DNA from: Candidatus Paceibacter sp.
GTDB lineage: Bacteria; Patescibacteriota; Minisyncoccia; UBA6257; 02-FULL-45-10c
DNA: 64,000 nucleotides
Assembly (NCBI GenBank): GCA_020724845.1
Contig: DYGE01000004.1
Coordinates: forward strand, 29,751-93,750
Direction: 5' to 3'
The position numbers and the translations under genes were made by a program. The stretch's first letter is position 1. The number at the start of each line of letters is the position of its first letter. Below are positions 6,697-14,271 of the stretch, piece by piece. The notes beneath the pieces are model-generated. The model had not been told where the DNA came from. It made no database searches and saw nothing but the letters and a program-made list of their open reading frames with translations.

Positions 6697-6778
6697 GGGC
6701 GAGTGGCGGAACTGGCAGACGCATACGACTCAAAATCGTACGGAGAAATCCATGAGAGTTCGAGTCTCTCCTCGCCCA
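6697..6778 (+). tRNA. tRNA-Leu (anticodon CAA)
   Basis: Manual cloverleaf: acceptor GGGCGAG/CTCGCCC, anticodon loop CTCAAAA, long variable arm, T-loop TTCGAGT; no encoded CCA. Confidence 0.85.
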
Positions 6779-6805
6779 CAATTCTAATATAAAAACCCCC
6801 TAAAA

Positions 6806-8374
6806 TCAGGGAGTTTTTCCTTTTAAAATGATTTTTTGCAGCTCGTCTAAGCTGGGACTATCAGTAGAAAACGGATTTCCATCCTCGCCGAAATAGACAT
6901 TTATACTTCTGCCTCTGTGTCCTAAAACAGCATGGTCCCACTCTAGAAGCTCGAGCTTCTCTAAAAACCGTTTGTTCTTGCGAAGCAGCCTAATAAACCT
7001 GCCTCTGCTTTTAGCTCGTGTCCCCGGAGAAGTTGTAATAGCCCTTTTAATGTCCTCTTGGCTAACCAAGCGCCTAATAGTTCCCCTCTCTTCCAGCGCT
7101 GCATATAAGCTAATTCTGGGGTCGGCGCTGATGTTGTGGTAATCCCAGTCAATTCTCCAAGCCCGGTTATCTTCTAATCCGAATCCAAACTTTTTCATTC
7201 CCTTCTCCAAAAGATGCCGTTTGGTAACCCAATCCAGTTCGCCTACCAGCTTATCAAGCGCCTTGGCCTCCAGCAGCTCCAAAACCCTCTCCCATTCTTC
7301 CAGGCACCTCTTTTCTTCCGGAGACAAAGGGCGGAGCTGCTTGGCGGCATTAAGAAAGATGCGGTTGTAGCGAATAATGTTGGCCCGGGAAGTTCTGGTC
7401 CTCAAGCGATAATTCAAGTCAATGCCAAAGTTTAATTTGTGCAATTCTTTGACTGGATCTTCCAGTCTTAACGGAGCCGGCAAATTCCATCCTTCCTCTC
7501 CCAGCCGCAAAACAAGATGCGTTATAGTATCTACCAGCCAAGTCTGCAGCTCGCAACGAGTAGCGTCCCGAGACATCAAATGCAAGCGCCCAAGTGTTAA
7601 AGAGCTGTCGGCGCGATCTTCATTTTTGTAATCAATCAGAGGCCGCAGATTATCTCCGTCGGACATCTCTTTCACTAGAACATGCGGAGCCCGCTGGGAA
7701 AAATTAAAGACAAAACCGCCGTTTCTTTTTCTCGCCACATGCCCATTTCCGCTAAGAATCAAGGCTGCTGGAATAAAATTCCATAAAATATCGGAAATGC
7801 TCCTCTCCTTTGCAAGTAGATAGGAGTAATTATGGTGACATCCATAGGTAACTTCCCGCCTTAAATCAAGAACAGAATTCTGGGTATTCGTGAAGATATC
7901 CTCATCTTCGTCATCGCCGCGCCCTGGTCCCACGCTATTCTTATAAAGCTCGAATCTCCTCAATCCCCAAATCTTGGAAACTTGCTTAAGCGCTAAATTT
8001 AAAATTTGCTCCAAGGCCTTTTCCTGGGCAACGATATCAAGCGAACCAGCCAAACATTCCGCGGTATTGCTTTCTATTAACCTCCCTATATCAATGTAAA
8101 TCTTTGATCCATTGCCAAGCCACACCATCTCGGGCTTATCTTTGTTATTCAAGATCACAGAAGGAAATCGCTTGGAAATGGCGACAATAAGGCTTGAATA
8201 GATATCTCGATGCCATTCCCCAAACTGATCTCTATAATCCAGGTCAGGCACCGGGTCTATGAAAACCCCGAACTCCTGCTCCCTGCCGCACAAACGTTTC
8301 TGCACTTTTACCTCTTCAGCTATAAAAGAACATTGTAATAGTATAACAAAATACCCCGCTTTTATGCGAGGCAT
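6806..8374 (-). CDS. divergent PafA/Dop-family carboxylate-amine ligase paralog (Pup ligase-like)
   Basis: N-terminal CGREQEFG variant of the GIETEFG motif; LYKNN…GCHHNYS and LSQRA…RPLIDYKNED blocks align to Mtb PafA from memory; tandem with a close paralog. Confidence 0.7.
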   Translation of the reverse strand: MPRIKAGYFVILLQCSFIAEEVKVQKRLCGREQEFGVFIDPVPDLDYRDQFGEWHRDIYSSLIVAISKRFPSVILNNKDKPEMVWLGNGSKIYIDIGRLIESNTAECLAGSLDIVAQEKALEQILNLALKQVSKIWGLRRFELYKNSVGPGRGDDEDEDIFTNTQNSVLDLRREVTYGCHHNYSYLLAKERSISDILWNFIPAALILSGNGHVARKRNGGFVFNFSQRAPHVLVKEMSDGDNLRPLIDYKNEDRADSSLTLGRLHLMSRDATRCELQTWLVDTITHLVLRLGEEGWNLPAPLRLEDPVKELHKLNFGIDLNYRLRTRTSRANIIRYNRIFLNAAKQLRPLSPEEKRCLEEWERVLELLEAKALDKLVGELDWVTKRHLLEKGMKKFGFGLEDNRAWRIDWDYHNISADPRISLYAALEERGTIRRLVSQEDIKRAITTSPGTRAKSRGRFIRLLRKNKRFLEKLELLEWDHAVLGHRGRSINVYFGEDGNPFSTDSPSLDELQKIILKGKTP

Positions 8375-8379
8375 TATAT

Positions 8380-9906
8380 TTATAAACTTGAGATTCCCAA
8401 TTTTTTATACAATTCTTCTAGATCAGGATTTTCGGTTGAAAACGGATTGCCGCCTCCTCCGAATGGGATCACTAATGGCTTATCTGATTTTTCTAAGAGT
8501 TCTTTTCTAAGAATTACCTTTTGCCAGTCCATATCCGCCTTAGGAAAGGCGCTTCTTAATTTTTCTTCCTGCCGAAAGAGTTTCACGAACCTCCCTCGGC
8601 TCATGGCCCGGCTTTGAGGAGGCGTCAGAATGGTCTTCCTGATGTCCTCCTCGCTTACCAGGCGCCTGATAACGTCTTTCTGCTCCAGGGCGGCATAGAG
8701 GCTAATTCGAGGATCTGAGCTAATGTTGTGATAATCCCAATCCATCCTCCAGGCGCGTTTGTCTTCTAGCCCAAATCCAAATTTTTTCATCGCCTTTTCC
8801 AAAAGATGCCATTTGGTAACCCAATCCAGTTCGCCAACCAATTTCTCCAACGCGCCAGCCTCCAGCAGACTTAAGATTCTCTCCCACTCTTCCAAACACT
8901 TCTTCTCTCTGACGGAAAGCGGATTTAGCTGCTTCGCGGCATCAAGAAAGATGCGGTTATATCGGATTATGTTTAGACGGAAGCTCCCGGTATAGTCTCC
9001 GCAAAGGATCGAGTAATCAAGACCGGCCGCAAAAGAAAAGTTGACATTTCTCATTTCGCCGACCGGGTCCTGTATACTATAATTAGACGGTAGTTCCCAT
9101 CCCTCCTCCGCAAGGCGGAGGACCAGGTGAGTAACGCCATCCATCAACCAAGTCTGCAGCTCGCAACGGGTAGCGTCTCTGGAAATCAGATGCAGCCGAC
9201 TTAGTGATTCAAACCCGTCCATCAACGCCTCGTCTCTTGTATTAACTATCGGCCGATTGTTTGTGGAACTGTTATTCTCCCTGGCGACAATGTGATTAGC
9301 TCGCTGCGAAAGAAGGTAGAAAAAATTGCCGCCATACTTAAAAACATGCCCATTGCCGCTTAAAACCAAGCCGGCCGGAACAAAGCTCTCAAGAATCCGG
9401 AAGACCATACTTTGCTTGGAAGCCAAATAAGAATAATTATGGTGGCTGCCAAACGTGACTTCGTTAAAAAGATCCTTCGGACTAGCCGGCCCCACGTTAT
9501 TTTTATATAGATTCAAAGAATCTATTTTCCTAGACTCTACGGCAAGCAACAAGGCCTGGTTCAGCATCAACTCTGACGCCTTCTCTTGAAGAACTCCTTC
9601 TATAGAACATGGGCGAGACTCGGCATTAGCCGCTTCTAACAAGCTTTGGTCCTTATAAAATACGGCCCCATTCGCAGTCCAAAGACGCCCGTTTACGGAC
9701 CTAATGGCCGGAAAGTTATAGCTCAAGCACCGAAGAATTTCATCAATAATCCTGCCCCTCCAAATAGCATGATCGGCGGCTATCATCTGGTCCGGCGATT
9801 CCCCGGTTATGATTTGAGGTGAATAAATCTTTGGAGGCCGCCAACCAGGCTTAACTACCATGGCGAACTCCTGCTCCCTGCCGCAAAGCCGTTCTTGCAT
9901 TTCCAT
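8380..9906 (-). CDS. divergent PafA/Dop-family carboxylate-amine ligase paralog (Pup ligase-like)
   Basis: MQERLCGREQEFAM…, NGAVFYKD…, LYKNN…GSHHNYSYL, LSQRANH, RPIVNTRDE blocks; high similarity to the 6806..8374 product. Confidence 0.7.
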   Translation of the reverse strand: MEMQERLCGREQEFAMVVKPGWRPPKIYSPQIITGESPDQMIAADHAIWRGRIIDEILRCLSYNFPAIRSVNGRLWTANGAVFYKDQSLLEAANAESRPCSIEGVLQEKASELMLNQALLLAVESRKIDSLNLYKNNVGPASPKDLFNEVTFGSHHNYSYLASKQSMVFRILESFVPAGLVLSGNGHVFKYGGNFFYLLSQRANHIVARENNSSTNNRPIVNTRDEALMDGFESLSRLHLISRDATRCELQTWLMDGVTHLVLRLAEEGWELPSNYSIQDPVGEMRNVNFSFAAGLDYSILCGDYTGSFRLNIIRYNRIFLDAAKQLNPLSVREKKCLEEWERILSLLEAGALEKLVGELDWVTKWHLLEKAMKKFGFGLEDKRAWRMDWDYHNISSDPRISLYAALEQKDVIRRLVSEEDIRKTILTPPQSRAMSRGRFVKLFRQEEKLRSAFPKADMDWQKVILRKELLEKSDKPLVIPFGGGGNPFSTENPDLEELYKKLGISSL

Positions 9907-9960
9907 TATTCAAATGACAAACAAGCTAGTATCTACTATATGGTTATTCTTGGCAATTGG

Positions 9961-9990
9961 CAAATACAAAACCGCCTGAATGGCGGTTAT
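9961..9990 (-). terminator. intrinsic terminator / attenuator immediately after pup
   Basis: On the minus strand, hairpin AACCGCC-ATTCA-GGCGGTT followed by TTTTGTATTT. Confidence 0.5.
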
Positions 9991-10184
9991 TACTCACCCC
10001 CTTGCTGGGGAACGTCTTCGGGTTCCAGATCCTTTCCTACGCCGGCGTCGTTATAAAAATCTTCCAACACATCTTCAACGCCTTCAACATCTTGCTCTTC
10101 CTGCTCCTCTTCTTCCTGCTCTTCCTCTTCCTTCTTTTTCTTTTTATTCTTTTTCTTTTTCTTTACTTTATCCTGCTCGGACAT
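9990..10184 (-). CDS. pup: prokaryotic ubiquitin-like protein Pup (C-terminal GGE)
   Basis: 64 aa, highly charged and disordered; C-terminus …EDVPQQGGE; sits between the Dop-like and PafA-like genes as in canonical dop-pup synteny; poly-K/poly-E N-terminus. Confidence 0.7.
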   Translation of the reverse strand: MSEQDKVKKKKKNKKKKKEEEEQEEEEQEEQDVEGVEDVLEDFYNDAGVGKDLEPEDVPQQGGE

Positions 10185-10198
10185 CCAAACCTCAACTC

Positions 10199-11662
10199 TT
10201 AGCGATCTAATTCCGATAATATCATATCCGCCCCCAGTTTATCAAGCGACGGCTCATCAAAATCCAGATGTATCATTCTGTCGCCGCTTCTCATATAAGC
10301 AGAACCCCAATTCATATGCACGATTCCGGATCCAAATCTTTTGATAATTTCAGAACGCAGATAAGCCTTGGTGTCGTTCGGCGGATTAGATGTGGCCAAC
10401 TTGATAGAATCACTATCCAGCAGTTTGGCGCCTCTTACTTTTTCGGATAATTTCAAATGCGGATTGCGAGGATAAATCTCTCGAAAAGAACGGAGGTTCT
10501 TTTTAGCTTCGGCTGGACGGCTCTCCATTATTTTCCAGGCCGTTGCCCAGTCCAACCTGCCAAAGGCCAGAGCGGGATCCTTCTCTAAAATCTCTAATAA
10601 TTCTTCTGCTCGCTTTACGGCAAGCAAGTGCTGATCCGTCATCGGAGTGCCAGAAAGATAATCTCTGGCCTTCGATAAATAGTACCTAAGTATTTCCATG
10701 CCAGTCAGTTTTTTGCCATTTTCCATCCGAATCCGATCGCGGAATTTTAAATCGCGTGAAACCTTAATCATGGCTTCAACGGGCTTCCAAGGCATCATAT
10801 TCCTAGAAAGGAATTTATCCTCTATCATCGCTAGCACGACCTGGGTCAGGGCGACTTTCAAAAAAATAGCTTCTTCGCACAAAAGCGCGTCAGTGGAAAT
10901 ATCATGTAAGCGATAATATTTCCCAAAATCAGCATGGGGCTCGTCTCTAAGATTGAAAATAGGCCGTTCGCTGGTTGTGTTATATCCCACCAGATTTTCA
11001 AAAAAATCAGCCCTTTGAGAAATCTGAAAACGGCAGCTTGGCCGCTTGTTCTCCGATCCGAACTTGCCAGCCCCGATTAGAACCATCCTCGCAATCTGAA
11101 ATGGCATATAATGCCTGACGAGATAGGCGTGTCGGTCGTGTTCCACCGCGGCCCGATTAAGAAGCATGTTCAGGTGACAGCCATAACTATTACCCAACCC
11201 GTCGCTGTTATTCTTGTGCAAATAAAGAAGATATCCTTCCCGATCTTTTTGGCGGTAAAATAAATCCGCAGCGGCAAGCATAACTAGCTCGCTTGCCTTG
11301 TCATGGGCGACTAAATCCAGCGGCTTGAGGCATTCGGGAGTAGAATATTCCGGATGAGCGACATCCAGATAAAACCTGGCCCCATTATCCAAGAAGCCGT
11401 CGGCTGAATTGCCAGAGCGCTCAATAATGCCGCGATGCAGCTTCTCTATAAGAGTCTCTTCTTCATCATCGTCCGGCGGCCTTCTCGCCTCCCGGGACCT
11501 ATCGTAACGAGCGGCTTTCTGAAGGTTTAAGTAATCTCTTACAAAAGCATGAGAAAGCTCCGAATAAGCGCCTAAATCCACCGGATTCAATTCACTTCCA
11601 GATTTCCGAAGAATAGCAAAACCGAATTCGTTTTCTATTCCACAAACCTTAGGAACAGCCAT
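10199..11662 (-). CDS. dop: Dop/PafA-family enzyme, Dop-like (depupylase/deamidase candidate)
   Basis: VCGIENEFG, NGARFYLDVAHPEYSTPEC, HKNNSDGLGNSYGCHLN, IGAGKFG, ISQRADF, RPIFNLRDEPHAD match PafA/Dop; ~70-aa acidic insertion after the N-terminal motif resembles the Dop loop. Confidence 0.8.
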   Translation of the reverse strand: MAVPKVCGIENEFGFAILRKSGSELNPVDLGAYSELSHAFVRDYLNLQKAARYDRSREARRPPDDDEEETLIEKLHRGIIERSGNSADGFLDNGARFYLDVAHPEYSTPECLKPLDLVAHDKASELVMLAAADLFYRQKDREGYLLYLHKNNSDGLGNSYGCHLNMLLNRAAVEHDRHAYLVRHYMPFQIARMVLIGAGKFGSENKRPSCRFQISQRADFFENLVGYNTTSERPIFNLRDEPHADFGKYYRLHDISTDALLCEEAIFLKVALTQVVLAMIEDKFLSRNMMPWKPVEAMIKVSRDLKFRDRIRMENGKKLTGMEILRYYLSKARDYLSGTPMTDQHLLAVKRAEELLEILEKDPALAFGRLDWATAWKIMESRPAEAKKNLRSFREIYPRNPHLKLSEKVRGAKLLDSDSIKLATSNPPNDTKAYLRSEIIKRFGSGIVHMNWGSAYMRSGDRMIHLDFDEPSLDKLGADMILSELDR

Positions 11663-11753: not shown

Positions 11754-11785
11754 GAATAAAAAATCTGCCGCTATGCGGCAGACTC
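11754..11785 (-). terminator. intrinsic terminator after the ARC/Mpa gene
   Basis: On the minus strand, hairpin TCTGCCGC-ATA-GCGGCAGA followed by TTTTTTATT. Confidence 0.6.
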
Positions 11786-11794
11786 AAACATAAT

Positions 11795-13642
11795 TTAATC
11801 CTCTTCTTTCGGCTTAAACCCGAGCGGCTTCTCCTTCACTTTTAGGAAACTATTCTTCAACCGTCGCATCTCCTCATCCACGGCCCGGAAAAAATCTTTC
11901 TTCATAACTTCTTCCTTCGCATTTGAAGGATTCTCTTCCCTTAAACGATTATACCTCTCCAACGCAATAAGCCTGGCGTTTTCTACAATACTGGCCAAAA
12001 TCGCTCCGGAGAGCCAATCCTTCAAATAGACATCCTCTTCGCCCTTTTGAGTAATGGCTCTAAACCTATTATCAACAATTGTGCTATCCGGCTCTCCATC
12101 CTCAAAATGCATTCTCACAGGAGAACCGGTATAAAGAATGCGATTAGTGATCATATCAATAATATGATTACGGACATTCTCTGGATCCTTCTTAAGCTCA
12201 ACTTTCTGTTCTTCTCCGCTGCCAAAATGGTCAATGTAAGTATAGGTATCTTGTTCAAAGTACTTGCTGGCAAATGGCATATCGGCAGTCAGATGAATCC
12301 TAAGGATTTCCTTGATATCCTTTTCAGACCGCGGCCTTGGGACTTCAACGTCAACACCTAGGCGCCCAGGGCGCAAGATCGCCTTGTCAATCAAATCTTT
12401 GCGGTTGGTAGCGCCAATAACTAGGACATTTCCGAGCGGATCCATCCCTTGCAGAATCGCGTTAAACTGCCCGATGTCAGTGCCCATCCAGGGCTCATGA
12501 GAAGCAGTGTCTCTGCTTCGCAGTAAAGAATCAATCTCATCAATAAAGACAATAACTAGCCACCCCTGACTGGCTAGCTCCTTAGCGCGAGCGAAAATCT
12601 CTCTCATCTTTCTGGCGGTTTCTCCAACAAACTTATCGGTCAAATCCGCTCCCGCAAACTGCATGAATCCGACTTTCAACCCCCTGGATTTGCCAACGTC
12701 AGCGGCAATAACCTGCGCAAGCAGAGTTTTGCCGCAACCTTCAGGACCGTGGAGAATAAGGCCCTTCGGCGGATTTTTGCCCTTGAATTTAGCGTATACC
12801 TCCGGAATCTTGAAAGGCAGTAAGCTTCGCTTAATCTTTTTAACCGCCCTGGAAAGTCCTCCGACATGAGACCAATCCTTGTCTCTGATCTCCTCAATGT
12901 CAAAAAATCTTTCCGCGCCCTCCACCTTCGGAAGAAGCTTTAGCAAAAGACCATTATAGTTAAGCAGATAATCGCCGTCCTTAAGCTTCTGGTCTTTGAG
13001 TTCCGGGCTGAGGAAGCACTGAAAGAGCGAGCCTCCTTCACCGCTGACCAAGGCCTCTTCGTCATTCAACTTTTCTTTGAAGCTGACCACCGAGCCTCGG
13101 AAATGGTGTTTTTTAGTAAGGCCAACTATATTTCCGGTTTCCGGATCTAAGAGCACCTCCCAACCGCACTTCAAATCTGCAGCAGATAACCCCGGCATGG
13201 CCAAATGCACTTTGCGCATTTCATCGTCAACCAGAATATCAACCTCATCAGCATCACCTCCAGGATGCGGCCGAATAAAAACTCCATACTTGCTGGCGGC
13301 GCCCTGCCTGCTCTTTTCCGCCTGCTCATGCTGTTTGGCAATCTTCGTTAATCGCTCCAAGGCCTTGGCGTACGCCTTATTCGCCCTATCCAGCTTCTGG
13401 CCGCGCTCCTCGCATTCCTTAATCCGCCTCCTAAGAGCTCGTATTATAATCTTGGAATTCTCTCTATCGGTCTCCAACTTTCTAAGCAAGTCCTCCAGGT
13501 CTTTATCGTCGCCATCTCCGGATTTCTTTCTCTTTTTACCGCTTAAAAATAACTCCAACAATTCGTCCAAGAAGTCTTTCGGGTCATTCTCTTGGTTCAT
13601 TTTCAATTTGCAAGGTTCAAGATTTTGAATAAAATATAGCAT
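11795..13642 (-). CDS. arc: ARC/Mpa-type AAA+ ATPase (proteasome-associated ATPase homolog)
   Basis: N-terminal coiled coil, OB-like interdomain (KYGVFIRP…), one AAA module (GPEGCGKTLLA…, VIVFIDEIDS); no C-terminal GQYL/HbYX; likely true start is MNQEN at 13600. Confidence 0.85.
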   Translation of the reverse strand: MLYFIQNLEPCKLKMNQENDPKDFLDELLELFLSGKKRKKSGDGDDKDLEDLLRKLETDRENSKIIIRALRRRIKECEERGQKLDRANKAYAKALERLTKIAKQHEQAEKSRQGAASKYGVFIRPHPGGDADEVDILVDDEMRKVHLAMPGLSAADLKCGWEVLLDPETGNIVGLTKKHHFRGSVVSFKEKLNDEEALVSGEGGSLFQCFLSPELKDQKLKDGDYLLNYNGLLLKLLPKVEGAERFFDIEEIRDKDWSHVGGLSRAVKKIKRSLLPFKIPEVYAKFKGKNPPKGLILHGPEGCGKTLLAQVIAADVGKSRGLKVGFMQFAGADLTDKFVGETARKMREIFARAKELASQGWLVIVFIDEIDSLLRSRDTASHEPWMGTDIGQFNAILQGMDPLGNVLVIGATNRKDLIDKAILRPGRLGVDVEVPRPRSEKDIKEILRIHLTADMPFASKYFEQDTYTYIDHFGSGEEQKVELKKDPENVRNHIIDMITNRILYTGSPVRMHFEDGEPDSTIVDNRFRAITQKGEEDVYLKDWLSGAILASIVENARLIALERYNRLREENPSNAKEEVMKKDFFRAVDEEMRRLKNSFLKVKEKPLGFKPKEED

Positions 13643-13685
13643 TTTCAGCTAAGTTATGACAAGGAGGCTTGGGTATCCTGGCCTC

Positions 13686-13716: not shown

Positions 13717-14271
13717 TTACATAGTGCCAGCGGAAAGACAAGTCAGGATGGCCTGCCACGCCGATCTTCCAGTCGGCCTTAAATCGCTCTTTCTGACTTT
13801 AGATAAATAGACTCCTCCAGGGAAGGCCTGAATGGGGCAATGGACGGAACACCAGACAACCCCGCGCTCATCCGGCCCGGATTCATTAGTGACAATCCCC
13901 AAAGTATAACGCCCGCTTCCGGGAACTATTTCAAACTCAACCTCATAGGCGCCCTGCGTCTTTATTCTTTCCAAGAAATCCATGAATTTGATCAAAGACC
14001 CGACTAGCGGCAGATTGCCAAGTAAGCTAGATATTAGATCCTTGAAGCTGGGTAGATTCAGAAGGAATCCGGTTCCATAGGATGCCAAAGCTACGCAAAG
14101 AATATTCAGAAAAAAATTCAGAGTCTGATTTTCGTAAAAATGCCAGCCGACGGTATGTACTATATTCCAAACGCCATGGCCCAGGTAAGCGGCCACTATA
14201 AAAAGCAGGATAAATAAAAAGCCGTTTCGGAGAATGACGTAATGCTTGCTAAGAAAGCTCTCTTTTTCCAC
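13717..14271 (-). CDS. hypothetical membrane protein
   Basis: Several predicted TM helices; no recognised motif. Confidence 0.4.
   Translation of the reverse strand: MEKESFLSKHYVILRNGFLFILLFIVAAYLGHGVWNIVHTVGWHFYENQTLNFFLNILCVALASYGTGFLLNLPSFKDLISSLLGNLPLVGSLIKFMDFLERIKTQGAYEVEFEIVPGSGRYTLGIVTNESGPDERGVVWCSVHCPIQAFPGGVYLSKVRKSDLRPTGRSAWQAILTCLSAGTM

Follow-up and report, generated by a model that had tools for sequence, protein, structure and literature searches.

We analysed a 64,000-nucleotide stretch of DNA from Candidatus Paceibacter sp. (GenBank assembly GCA_020724845.1, contig DYGE01000004.1, positions 29,751 to 93,750 of the forward strand; hereafter the window), in which two adjacent genes on the minus strand, termed here A (ligase paralog 1, first-position copy, 8380..9906) and B (ligase paralog 2, second-position copy, 6806..8374), encode members of Pup_ligase (PF03136), the family of PafA and Dop. 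The explanation that we favour, and hold to be moderately probable, is that both are ligases of a pupylation-type operon, that they form an early-duplicated PafA-type branch, and that their C-terminal block has been homogenised. The original prediction for this region, made from the letters alone, had spoken of tandem, highly divergent PafA-like paralogs, a description borne out by the adjacent open reading frames (ORFs), their PF03136 matches, residues of PafA type, the lack of a Dop-loop and the position directly after a pup-like gene. The longest ORFs are 508 aa for A and 522 aa for B, with PF03136 E values of 6e-64 and 3.5e-61 (217 bits over profile positions 53-440 of 441 for A and 208 bits for B; cut-off 25). 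The two proteins are 48% identical (E 2e-158, protein comparison) and, as had also been noted, are more alike in their C-terminal than in their N-terminal parts (69% vs. 40% identity). AlphaFold2 (AF2) models of A and B, with predicted local distance difference test (pLDDT) values of 92.6 and 89.4, both display the two-domain fold with a beta-sheet cradle; in Foldseek, the model of A matched Dop structures with template-modelling (TM) scores of 0.78-0.86 and PafA structures with 0.77-0.79, while that of B matched Dop and PafA at 0.77-0.85, with E values of 1e-27 to 1e-30.

The genomic setting of the pair is conserved. A and B are the last two genes of a five-gene minus-strand cluster comprising an Mpa-like AAA ATPase, a Dop-like gene, a gene for a 64-aa Pup-like protein and the two ligase paralogs, and this operon is syntenic in the window and in eight related loci (L003, L005, L007, L008, L009, L010, L013 and L014), with both ligase copies in the same order in each locus long enough to show them. 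The extended order of rpoC, rpsF, ssb, PAP2, AAA, Dop-like, Pup-like, ligase 1, ligase 2, ParB and RelA is found in L003, L005, L007, L008 and L010; the contig of L009 stops just past ligase 2, before ParB, that of L014 is cut inside ligase 2, and the upstream flank of L013 differs from those of the other operon loci. Two of the related contigs are from Candidatus Harrisonbacteria, and RelA of the window is 80-83% identical to RelA of four operon loci, including both named Harrisonbacteria contigs, which points to a bacterium of the Harrisonbacteria type, from groundwater, as the source of the window. The taxonomic breadth of this comparison comes mostly from metagenome contigs, with a GTDB scan giving three species genomes only. 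PADLOC returned no match for the three ligase-family proteins of the cluster and generic AAA matches only for the ATPase, and a search of the literature on pupylation in the candidate phyla radiation (CPR), Patescibacteria or Harrisonbacteria, on UBact and on PafA2 found no description of this ligase pair.

The residues expected of a working enzyme are largely in place in both copies. We aligned 54 members of the clade to which A and B belong together with about 65 further proteins of the family, numbered the columns after A. cellulolyticus Dop, and took residue roles from published work (PMC8599861, PMC7947786, PMC10465538, PMC3511204). Invariant or nearly so in both copies are E8, E10, Y92, D94, E99, E104, K142, H155, N157, R205, R221, R239, H241 and D246, with the R227 position being Arg or Lys; also kept are N87, N143, N144, Y158 and a Trp of the C-terminal domain. 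Among these, D94 is the catalytic Asp of Dop (PMC3511204, PMC8599861) and is Asp in 54 of 54 members; equivalent to D57/D64 of PafA, it corresponds to D86 of A as counted from M1 (9649..9651, minus strand) and to D72 of B as counted from the GTG start (8090..8092, minus strand). R227 and H241 keep the active-site phosphate in place in Dop, with R90 and Y92 in contact with the nucleotide (PMC8599861); R227 is the counterpart of R207, the key substrate-binding Arg of PafA, and R221 that of PafA R201, which pairs with the C-terminus of Pup and is retained in 53 of the 54 members. Since the glutamine-synthetase-like core is kept in both copies, ligase chemistry may be assigned to each, and we lean towards the view that both are active ligases for a Pup-like tag.

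The original prediction had taken the family-defining N-terminal motifs to be replaced in both proteins and had concluded that the active site was altered, with one copy possibly non-catalytic. The motifs that it quoted do exist (CGREQEFG in B and CGREQEFA in A), but the GREQE stretch within them (9868..9882 in A and 8273..8287 in B, both on the minus strand, and present in about 50 of the 54 clade members) still fits GhExE, the ATP-binding motif of the family (PMC7947786), with both Glu residues of this ATP/Mg motif kept, an Arg in lieu of the hydrophobic residue and Gln at the x position. Likewise, the second quoted motif, NGAVFYKDQSLLEA in A and NGSKIYIDIGRLIES in B, keeps the catalytic Asp as well as the Glu of HPEY, so it cannot be called replaced either, and the downstream block RP(I/L)…TRDE, said to be retained in both, is present in A (RPIVNTRDE) but not in B (RPLIDYKNE). 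With the core residues invariant or nearly so across the 54 homologs, the idea of a disabled site is not borne out; judged from the alignment, the catalytic residues appear intact, and remodelling is confined to a few positions, part of which lie in the nucleotide pocket.

Several observations, which we gather here, nonetheless weigh against two fully functional ligases: 1) the position of R90, which in Dop contacts the alpha-phosphate of ATP, is Leu, Val or Gln in 19 of the 24 first-position g1 copies, with Val in A; 2) H231, which stacks in the nucleotide pocket, is Leu in most members; 3) H97 of HPEY and D207 are lost, and E156 of HENY is changed to His or Gln; 4) B departs further at N144S, N225D, R227K and D228N; 5) a search for specificity-determining positions found only two, both weak, that are conserved differently between first and second copies; 6) in L005, a 608-kb Harrisonbacteria contig, the ligase genes (8001-10749) look truncated or frameshifted, with 380 aa in one and 363 + 99 aa in the other; and 7) our trees are simple neighbour-joining (NJ) distance trees in which deep nodes, e.g. 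the monophyly of first-position copies, are without resolution. On account of the changes at R90, H231, H97, D207 and E156, ATP binding could be altered or weakened. In addition, R218, the site-2 Arg of PafA, is lost in the clade. A one-residue insertion after the Asp (IDLGxILE vs. KDQxx-LE), considered as a marker distinguishing the two paralogs, was rejected, as it varies within both groups.

How the two copies would share the work is a matter on which we can be tentative at best. One possibility, to which we give limited weight, is a proteasome-independent pupylation system with two co-retained ligases, whose fast-changing N-terminal halves and loops set their substrate ranges apart or tie them into an obligate pair. 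On this reading, the shared C-terminal block would be kept uniform by conversion, and the changes at R90, H97 and H231 could mean an altered use of nucleotide. Because only two positions are conserved differently between the copies, no fixed functional split is visible in the sequence; the variable loops and N-terminal halves seem easier to reconcile with substrate-facing surfaces that diversify, or with the copies working as a pair, than with such a split. A diverged substrate specificity of A and B is plausible, and the two copies may divide substrates between them.

One of the two copies might instead be a non-catalytic partner, i.e. a pseudo-enzyme, adaptor or regulator that might join the active copy in a heteromer. 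Such a partner would explain the constant co-retention of the pair, and its strict co-occurrence and fixed order speak for it, as do the lack of an Arg equivalent to Dop R90 in most first-position g1 copies, the four departures of B noted above, which are conservative and lie near strand 7, and the gene conversion that keeps part of both proteins alike. We nevertheless regard this as unlikely, given that the Glu residues that bind metal, the catalytic Asp and the His and Arg contacts of the phosphate and the Pup tail are invariant or nearly so in both copies despite deep divergence (with Arg/Lys at R227), hardly the pattern of a dead enzyme, and that the loss of R90 is not universal, with Arg kept in 4 of 24 first-position g1 copies and in all seven g3 first copies. 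In most second copies, the R90 position is Arg or Lys, with Lys in B.

Less probable still is that the paralogs are not Pup-tag ligases at all but extra hydrolases (depupylases or deamidases) or amide ligases acting on another carboxylate. The family model scores would allow for this, being nearly equal for the Dop equivalog TIGR03688 (171.7 bits for A and 143.7 for B; cut-off 492 bits) and the PafA equivalog TIGR03686 (161.9 and 156.5 bits; cut-off 551 bits), with both proteins falling below either cut-off; moreover, Foldseek ranks Dop structures slightly above PafA, and the Pup_ligase family extends far beyond PafA and Dop, an exhaustive search giving 4523 representatives at E ≤1e-3. Against it stand the residues at several of the positions that discriminate ligases from hydrolases (Hecht et al. 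2020, Table 1; PMC7947786), which look to be of PafA type in the clade: S101 is replaced by Ala in 47 of 54 members, P103 by Ala in 45 and F208 by His in 45, and the I84 position is aromatic; the alpha-loop and the positions flanking the Asp varied too much to be scored. In the AF2 models, there is no Dop-loop, as helix 1 (residues 36-62 of A and 25-46 of B) runs straight into the strand-2 region, with extra residues preceding helix 1. Furthermore, the operon already has a separate Dop-like gene, genes of the A/B type always come after the pup-like gene, and all but one of the 54 members have the Arg (PafA R201, Dop R221) with which the C-terminus of Pup pairs.

While the catalytic ligands are intact, A and B do not group with ordinary PafA. 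In an exhaustive profile search that covered 1.84 billion representatives, full-length clade members (516-690 bits) stood apart from the next full-length proteins (284 bits at most), and an NJ tree placed the clade on a long branch away from the DVGSHPE (PafA) and DHAHPE (Dop) groups. From these comparisons, the clade is a distinct branch with PafA-type residues that is neither ordinary PafA nor Dop. The nearest outgroup proteins, at 264-284 bits, are from the CPR bacteria Azambacteria and Woesebacteria. In Azambacteria, the operon order is AAA, Pup_ligase, Pup_ligase, Pup and Pup_ligase, and the gene that follows pup resembles A (158 bits) and B (155 bits) to the same degree; this equidistance suggests that the duplication of the post-pup gene occurred within the Harrisonbacteria-type lineage. 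As side observations on the Azambacteria loci (L011/L012, 2400-9500), the ATPase there has clear proteasomal OB domains and the second paralog carries SEEIEW for GhExE[YF]; a 520-aa gene after the Azambacteria ligase, considered as a hidden paralog, was rejected, as it encodes a glycosyltransferase.

The age of the duplication was judged from half-gene trees, built as NJ distance trees with 60 bootstraps from an N part (residues 1-232 of A) and a C part (residues 233-420). The two parts tell different histories: in the N part, genes at the same position in different genomes pair in 60/60 bootstraps, with no such pairing of the two copies of one genome and with A and B sisters in only 1/60, vs. 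the C part in which A and B are sisters in 53/60 and the L007 pair in 60/60. The signal in the C part is traced to a tract of about residues 301-420 (8647..9006 in A and 7055..7414 in B, both on the minus strand), identified by segment identity, trees and a direct-repeat match, where identity between A and B is 0.71-0.83 vs. a maximum of 0.61-0.68 to any ortholog; over the same segment, copy pairs elsewhere are mostly at 0.37-0.68, with the converted L007 and L005 pairs at 0.61-1.00. Identities of the A/B tract at the amino acid, nucleotide and third-position levels are 0.79, 0.73 and 0.52, as compared with 0.47-0.59, 0.49-0.62 and 0.26-0.47 for unconverted pairs. A sharper example is found in L007, where about 600 nt are 100% identical with sharp edges (approximately 7641-8270 and 9181-9810) between genes that are otherwise about 45% identical, which indicates very recent gene conversion, with an assembly effect as a possible alternative; in L005, blocks are 89-91% identical between the two copies. 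We read these patterns as repeated gene conversion of the C-terminal block between old tandem paralogs, the conversion being old in the window and recent in L007, and it is gene conversion that makes the C-terminal halves look recently duplicated. A recent tandem duplication, as originally proposed, in which young copies diverged very fast in their N-terminal halves, would account for the higher C-terminal identity and the sister placement of A and B in the C-part tree, but is very improbable in view of two copies in the same order in all nine loci, the opposite pairing in the N part, the baseline C-part identity of copy pairs in other genomes (0.47-0.62), the mere 73% DNA identity of the window tract and the sharply bounded identical block of L007, a signature of conversion.

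Returning to the favoured reading of two ligases, we surmise the following course of events. A single PafA-type gene located after pup, as in related CPR bacteria, would have been duplicated early in the Harrisonbacteria-type lineage and would have evolved fast thereafter. Each ligase would bind the Pup-like protein, its candidate substrate, through the C-terminal helices and the [GS]G[EQ] tail of this tag, and would phosphorylate the gamma-carboxylate of the terminal Glu with ATP/Mg; a lysine of the protein to be tagged would then attack the phosphorylated tag, the conserved Asp serving as the base. Tags ending in Gln (as in L005, L008 and L009) would be deamidated by the Dop-like enzyme, which would also remove tags, and the AAA ATPase would recognise and unfold tagged proteins. 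The freely diverging N-terminal halves and surface loops of the ligases are possibly the substrate-facing parts.

As for the gene boundaries, the true starts of A and B are likely to be internal to the longest ORFs. The consensus N-terminus of the clade is MQxRLCGREQE[FY]G, and, based on this consensus, B probably starts at GTG 8305, giving a protein of 499 aa with a GAGG ribosome-binding site 5 nt upstream, and A probably at ATG 9900 (MQERLCGREQEF...) or ATG 9906, so that both begin with MQxRLCGREQE. The public gene call for A (493 aa) is 15 codons late and loses the CGREQE motif; in public annotation, these proteins go by 'PafA2 family' or 'proteasome accessory factor A'. In B, residues 127-146, following the KNS motif, form a disordered acidic loop (GRGDDEDEDIF...) with pLDDT <50, and some second copies related to B (P0051-P0053) have a Pro-rich insertion of about 60-90 residues ahead of strand 2.

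The gene for the Pup-like modifier (9990..10184, minus strand, 64 aa), which the original prediction did not pick out, was recognised by its position, C-terminal tail and orthologs. The protein is of low complexity, with a Lys-rich and then acidic N-terminal part, and ends in VPQQGGE. Each related locus that extends this far has a short ORF of 60-78 aa called in the same place, and six translated orthologs of 62-70 aa end in [FY]RQK[SP]G[EQ] in five cases and in RKRQKSGE in L010, closely resembling the YVQKGG[QE] tail of Pup; the tail in the window is more diverged than those of its orthologs. A profile of the seven sequences had Pup as four of its five best PDB matches, aligned at the C-terminus with marginal E values of 0.08-0.7. 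Pfam and NCBIfam scans of the window protein and its orthologs gave no Pup match, only low-complexity noise; the Azambacteria counterpart matches Pfam Pup at 3e-17.

The neighbouring Dop-like gene (10199..11662, minus strand, 487 aa) had been correctly called as such: the protein has a Dop-loop-type insertion and the STPE/F208-type signature of Dop, and reaches 258 bits against A. cellulolyticus Dop (4b0r), in an alignment that takes in the Dop-loop region, vs. 143 bits against PafA (4b0t), and 303 bits against TIGR03688, below the cut-off of 492. It carries GCHLNML for the family G.HENY (E156 to Leu and Y158 to Met) and ARYD for ARWD of the Dop-loop. In L013 (4263-5723), the Dop-like gene is split into parts of 403 and 78 aa; this and the broken ligase genes of L005 could be pseudogenes or assembly errors around converted repeats.

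The Mpa/ARC-like AAA ATPase (11795..13642, minus strand; 601 aa from the called start) has coiled-coil, OB and AAA parts, as reflected in an N-terminal region of coiled-coil type, a KFVG pore loop, a weak OB_C match, a PF00004 match and a TIGR03689 (pup_AAA) score of 263 bits, which is under the cut-off. Its C-termini in the window, L003, L005 and L007-L010 share a conserved [IPM]GF, beyond which the tail varies, and lack the GQYL or penultimate-Tyr motif, GQYL serving in proteasome docking (PMC8755798). No gene of the Proteasome family lies within 6-10 kb in the 11 gene-listed loci, including two Azambacteria loci, and a tblastn search of the window with an approximate PrcB query had no match, a weak negative. 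Between PAP2 and the ATPase, the window has a gene for a 184-aa predicted membrane protein (13717-14271, minus strand) that neither Pfam nor PADLOC matched; L003 and L008 have a gene of about this size, likewise without a Pfam match, in the same place, whereas L007, L009 and L010 do not.

With respect to transcription, a terminator-like hairpin lies between A and B (8350..8375, minus strand; consensus scan only), and similar hairpins are found 3' of the pup-like gene (9970-9988), of B (6796-6812) and of the AAA gene (11761-11785), along with promoter-like hexamer pairs ahead of B (8373-8400), A (9935-9963), the pup-like gene (10216-10245) and the AAA gene (13633-13662), all of these on the minus strand and consensus matches only. 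Given these hairpins and promoter-like sites, the AAA, pup-like, A and B genes may be transcribed separately. A tRNA-Leu (CAA) gene (6697-6779, plus strand) sits on the opposite strand between B and parB. As to the pace of change, the pupylation genes are 42-59% identical between genomes in which RelA, rpoC, TopA and ParB are 64-86% identical (window vs. L003-L010), suggesting that the module changes more quickly than most of the housekeeping genes beside it; the pace of rpsF and PAP2 is about that of the module.

In the pupylation papers that we consulted, PafA is the sole Pup ligase and tags hundreds of substrates, and the breadth of substrates tagged by one PafA is still discussed as an open question. 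If our reading is true, two co-retained PafA-type ligases would be the first example from nature of Pup ligase in more than one copy, and a pair kept for so long would amount to a natural experiment on dividing the specificity of this enzyme. It would also extend pupylation-type systems into the small-genome CPR bacteria, where, given an ATPase without the docking tail and no adjacent proteasome genes, tagging would serve unfolding or regulation and not 20S degradation. The practical gain is modest, consisting of better annotation (gene starts and the pup-like gene) and candidate enzymes for biochemical comparison.

Compared with known systems, A and B share with actinobacterial PafA (4B0T, 4BJR; TIGR03686) the family PF03136, the two-domain fold, the GhExE motif, the catalytic Asp, the glutamine-synthetase-like core, the absence of a Dop-loop, PafA-type residues at several discriminating positions and a place beside pup, dop and Mpa-like ATPase genes. 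They differ from PafA in sharing just 22-23% of residues with the Cgl PafA structures by Foldseek alignment, in scoring 157-162 bits where 551 is the cut-off, in forming a separate clade, in having GREQE for G[IL]ETE, xLE for HPEY and HHNY for HENY, in the changes of the clade at R90, D207 and H231, in the loss of R218, which in PafA takes part in substrate binding, in being two copies, and in residing in an operon without prcBA proteasome genes. With Dop (4B0R, 7OXY; TIGR03688), they have in common the family, the fold (TM up to 0.86) and similar hidden Markov model scores, but neither A nor B has the Dop-loop or the Dop-type STP, F208 and G214 residues. The nearest relative is the PafA-like 'Pup-protein ligase' after pup in Azambacteria and Woesebacteria (KKR90945.1 / KKS74917.1; 264-284 bits), which likewise has an Mpa-like ATPase gene and further Pup_ligase paralogs in its operon; unlike the pair described here, it is a single copy after pup, with two paralogs before pup, in a system with the canonical Pup tail YVQRGGE and motifs of HPE/HLE type, whereas the gene in the Harrisonbacteria clade is duplicated and strongly diverged. 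Finally, the mosaic phylogeny (N part by ortholog and C part by genome), the sharp identical tract in L007 and tract ages that differ between lineages all correspond to the concerted evolution of tandem paralogs by gene conversion, from which our case departs in nothing unusual. What is new here is the lineage-specific, long-retained and divergent PafA-type pair with partial gene conversion, a moderate variation on a system that is itself known.

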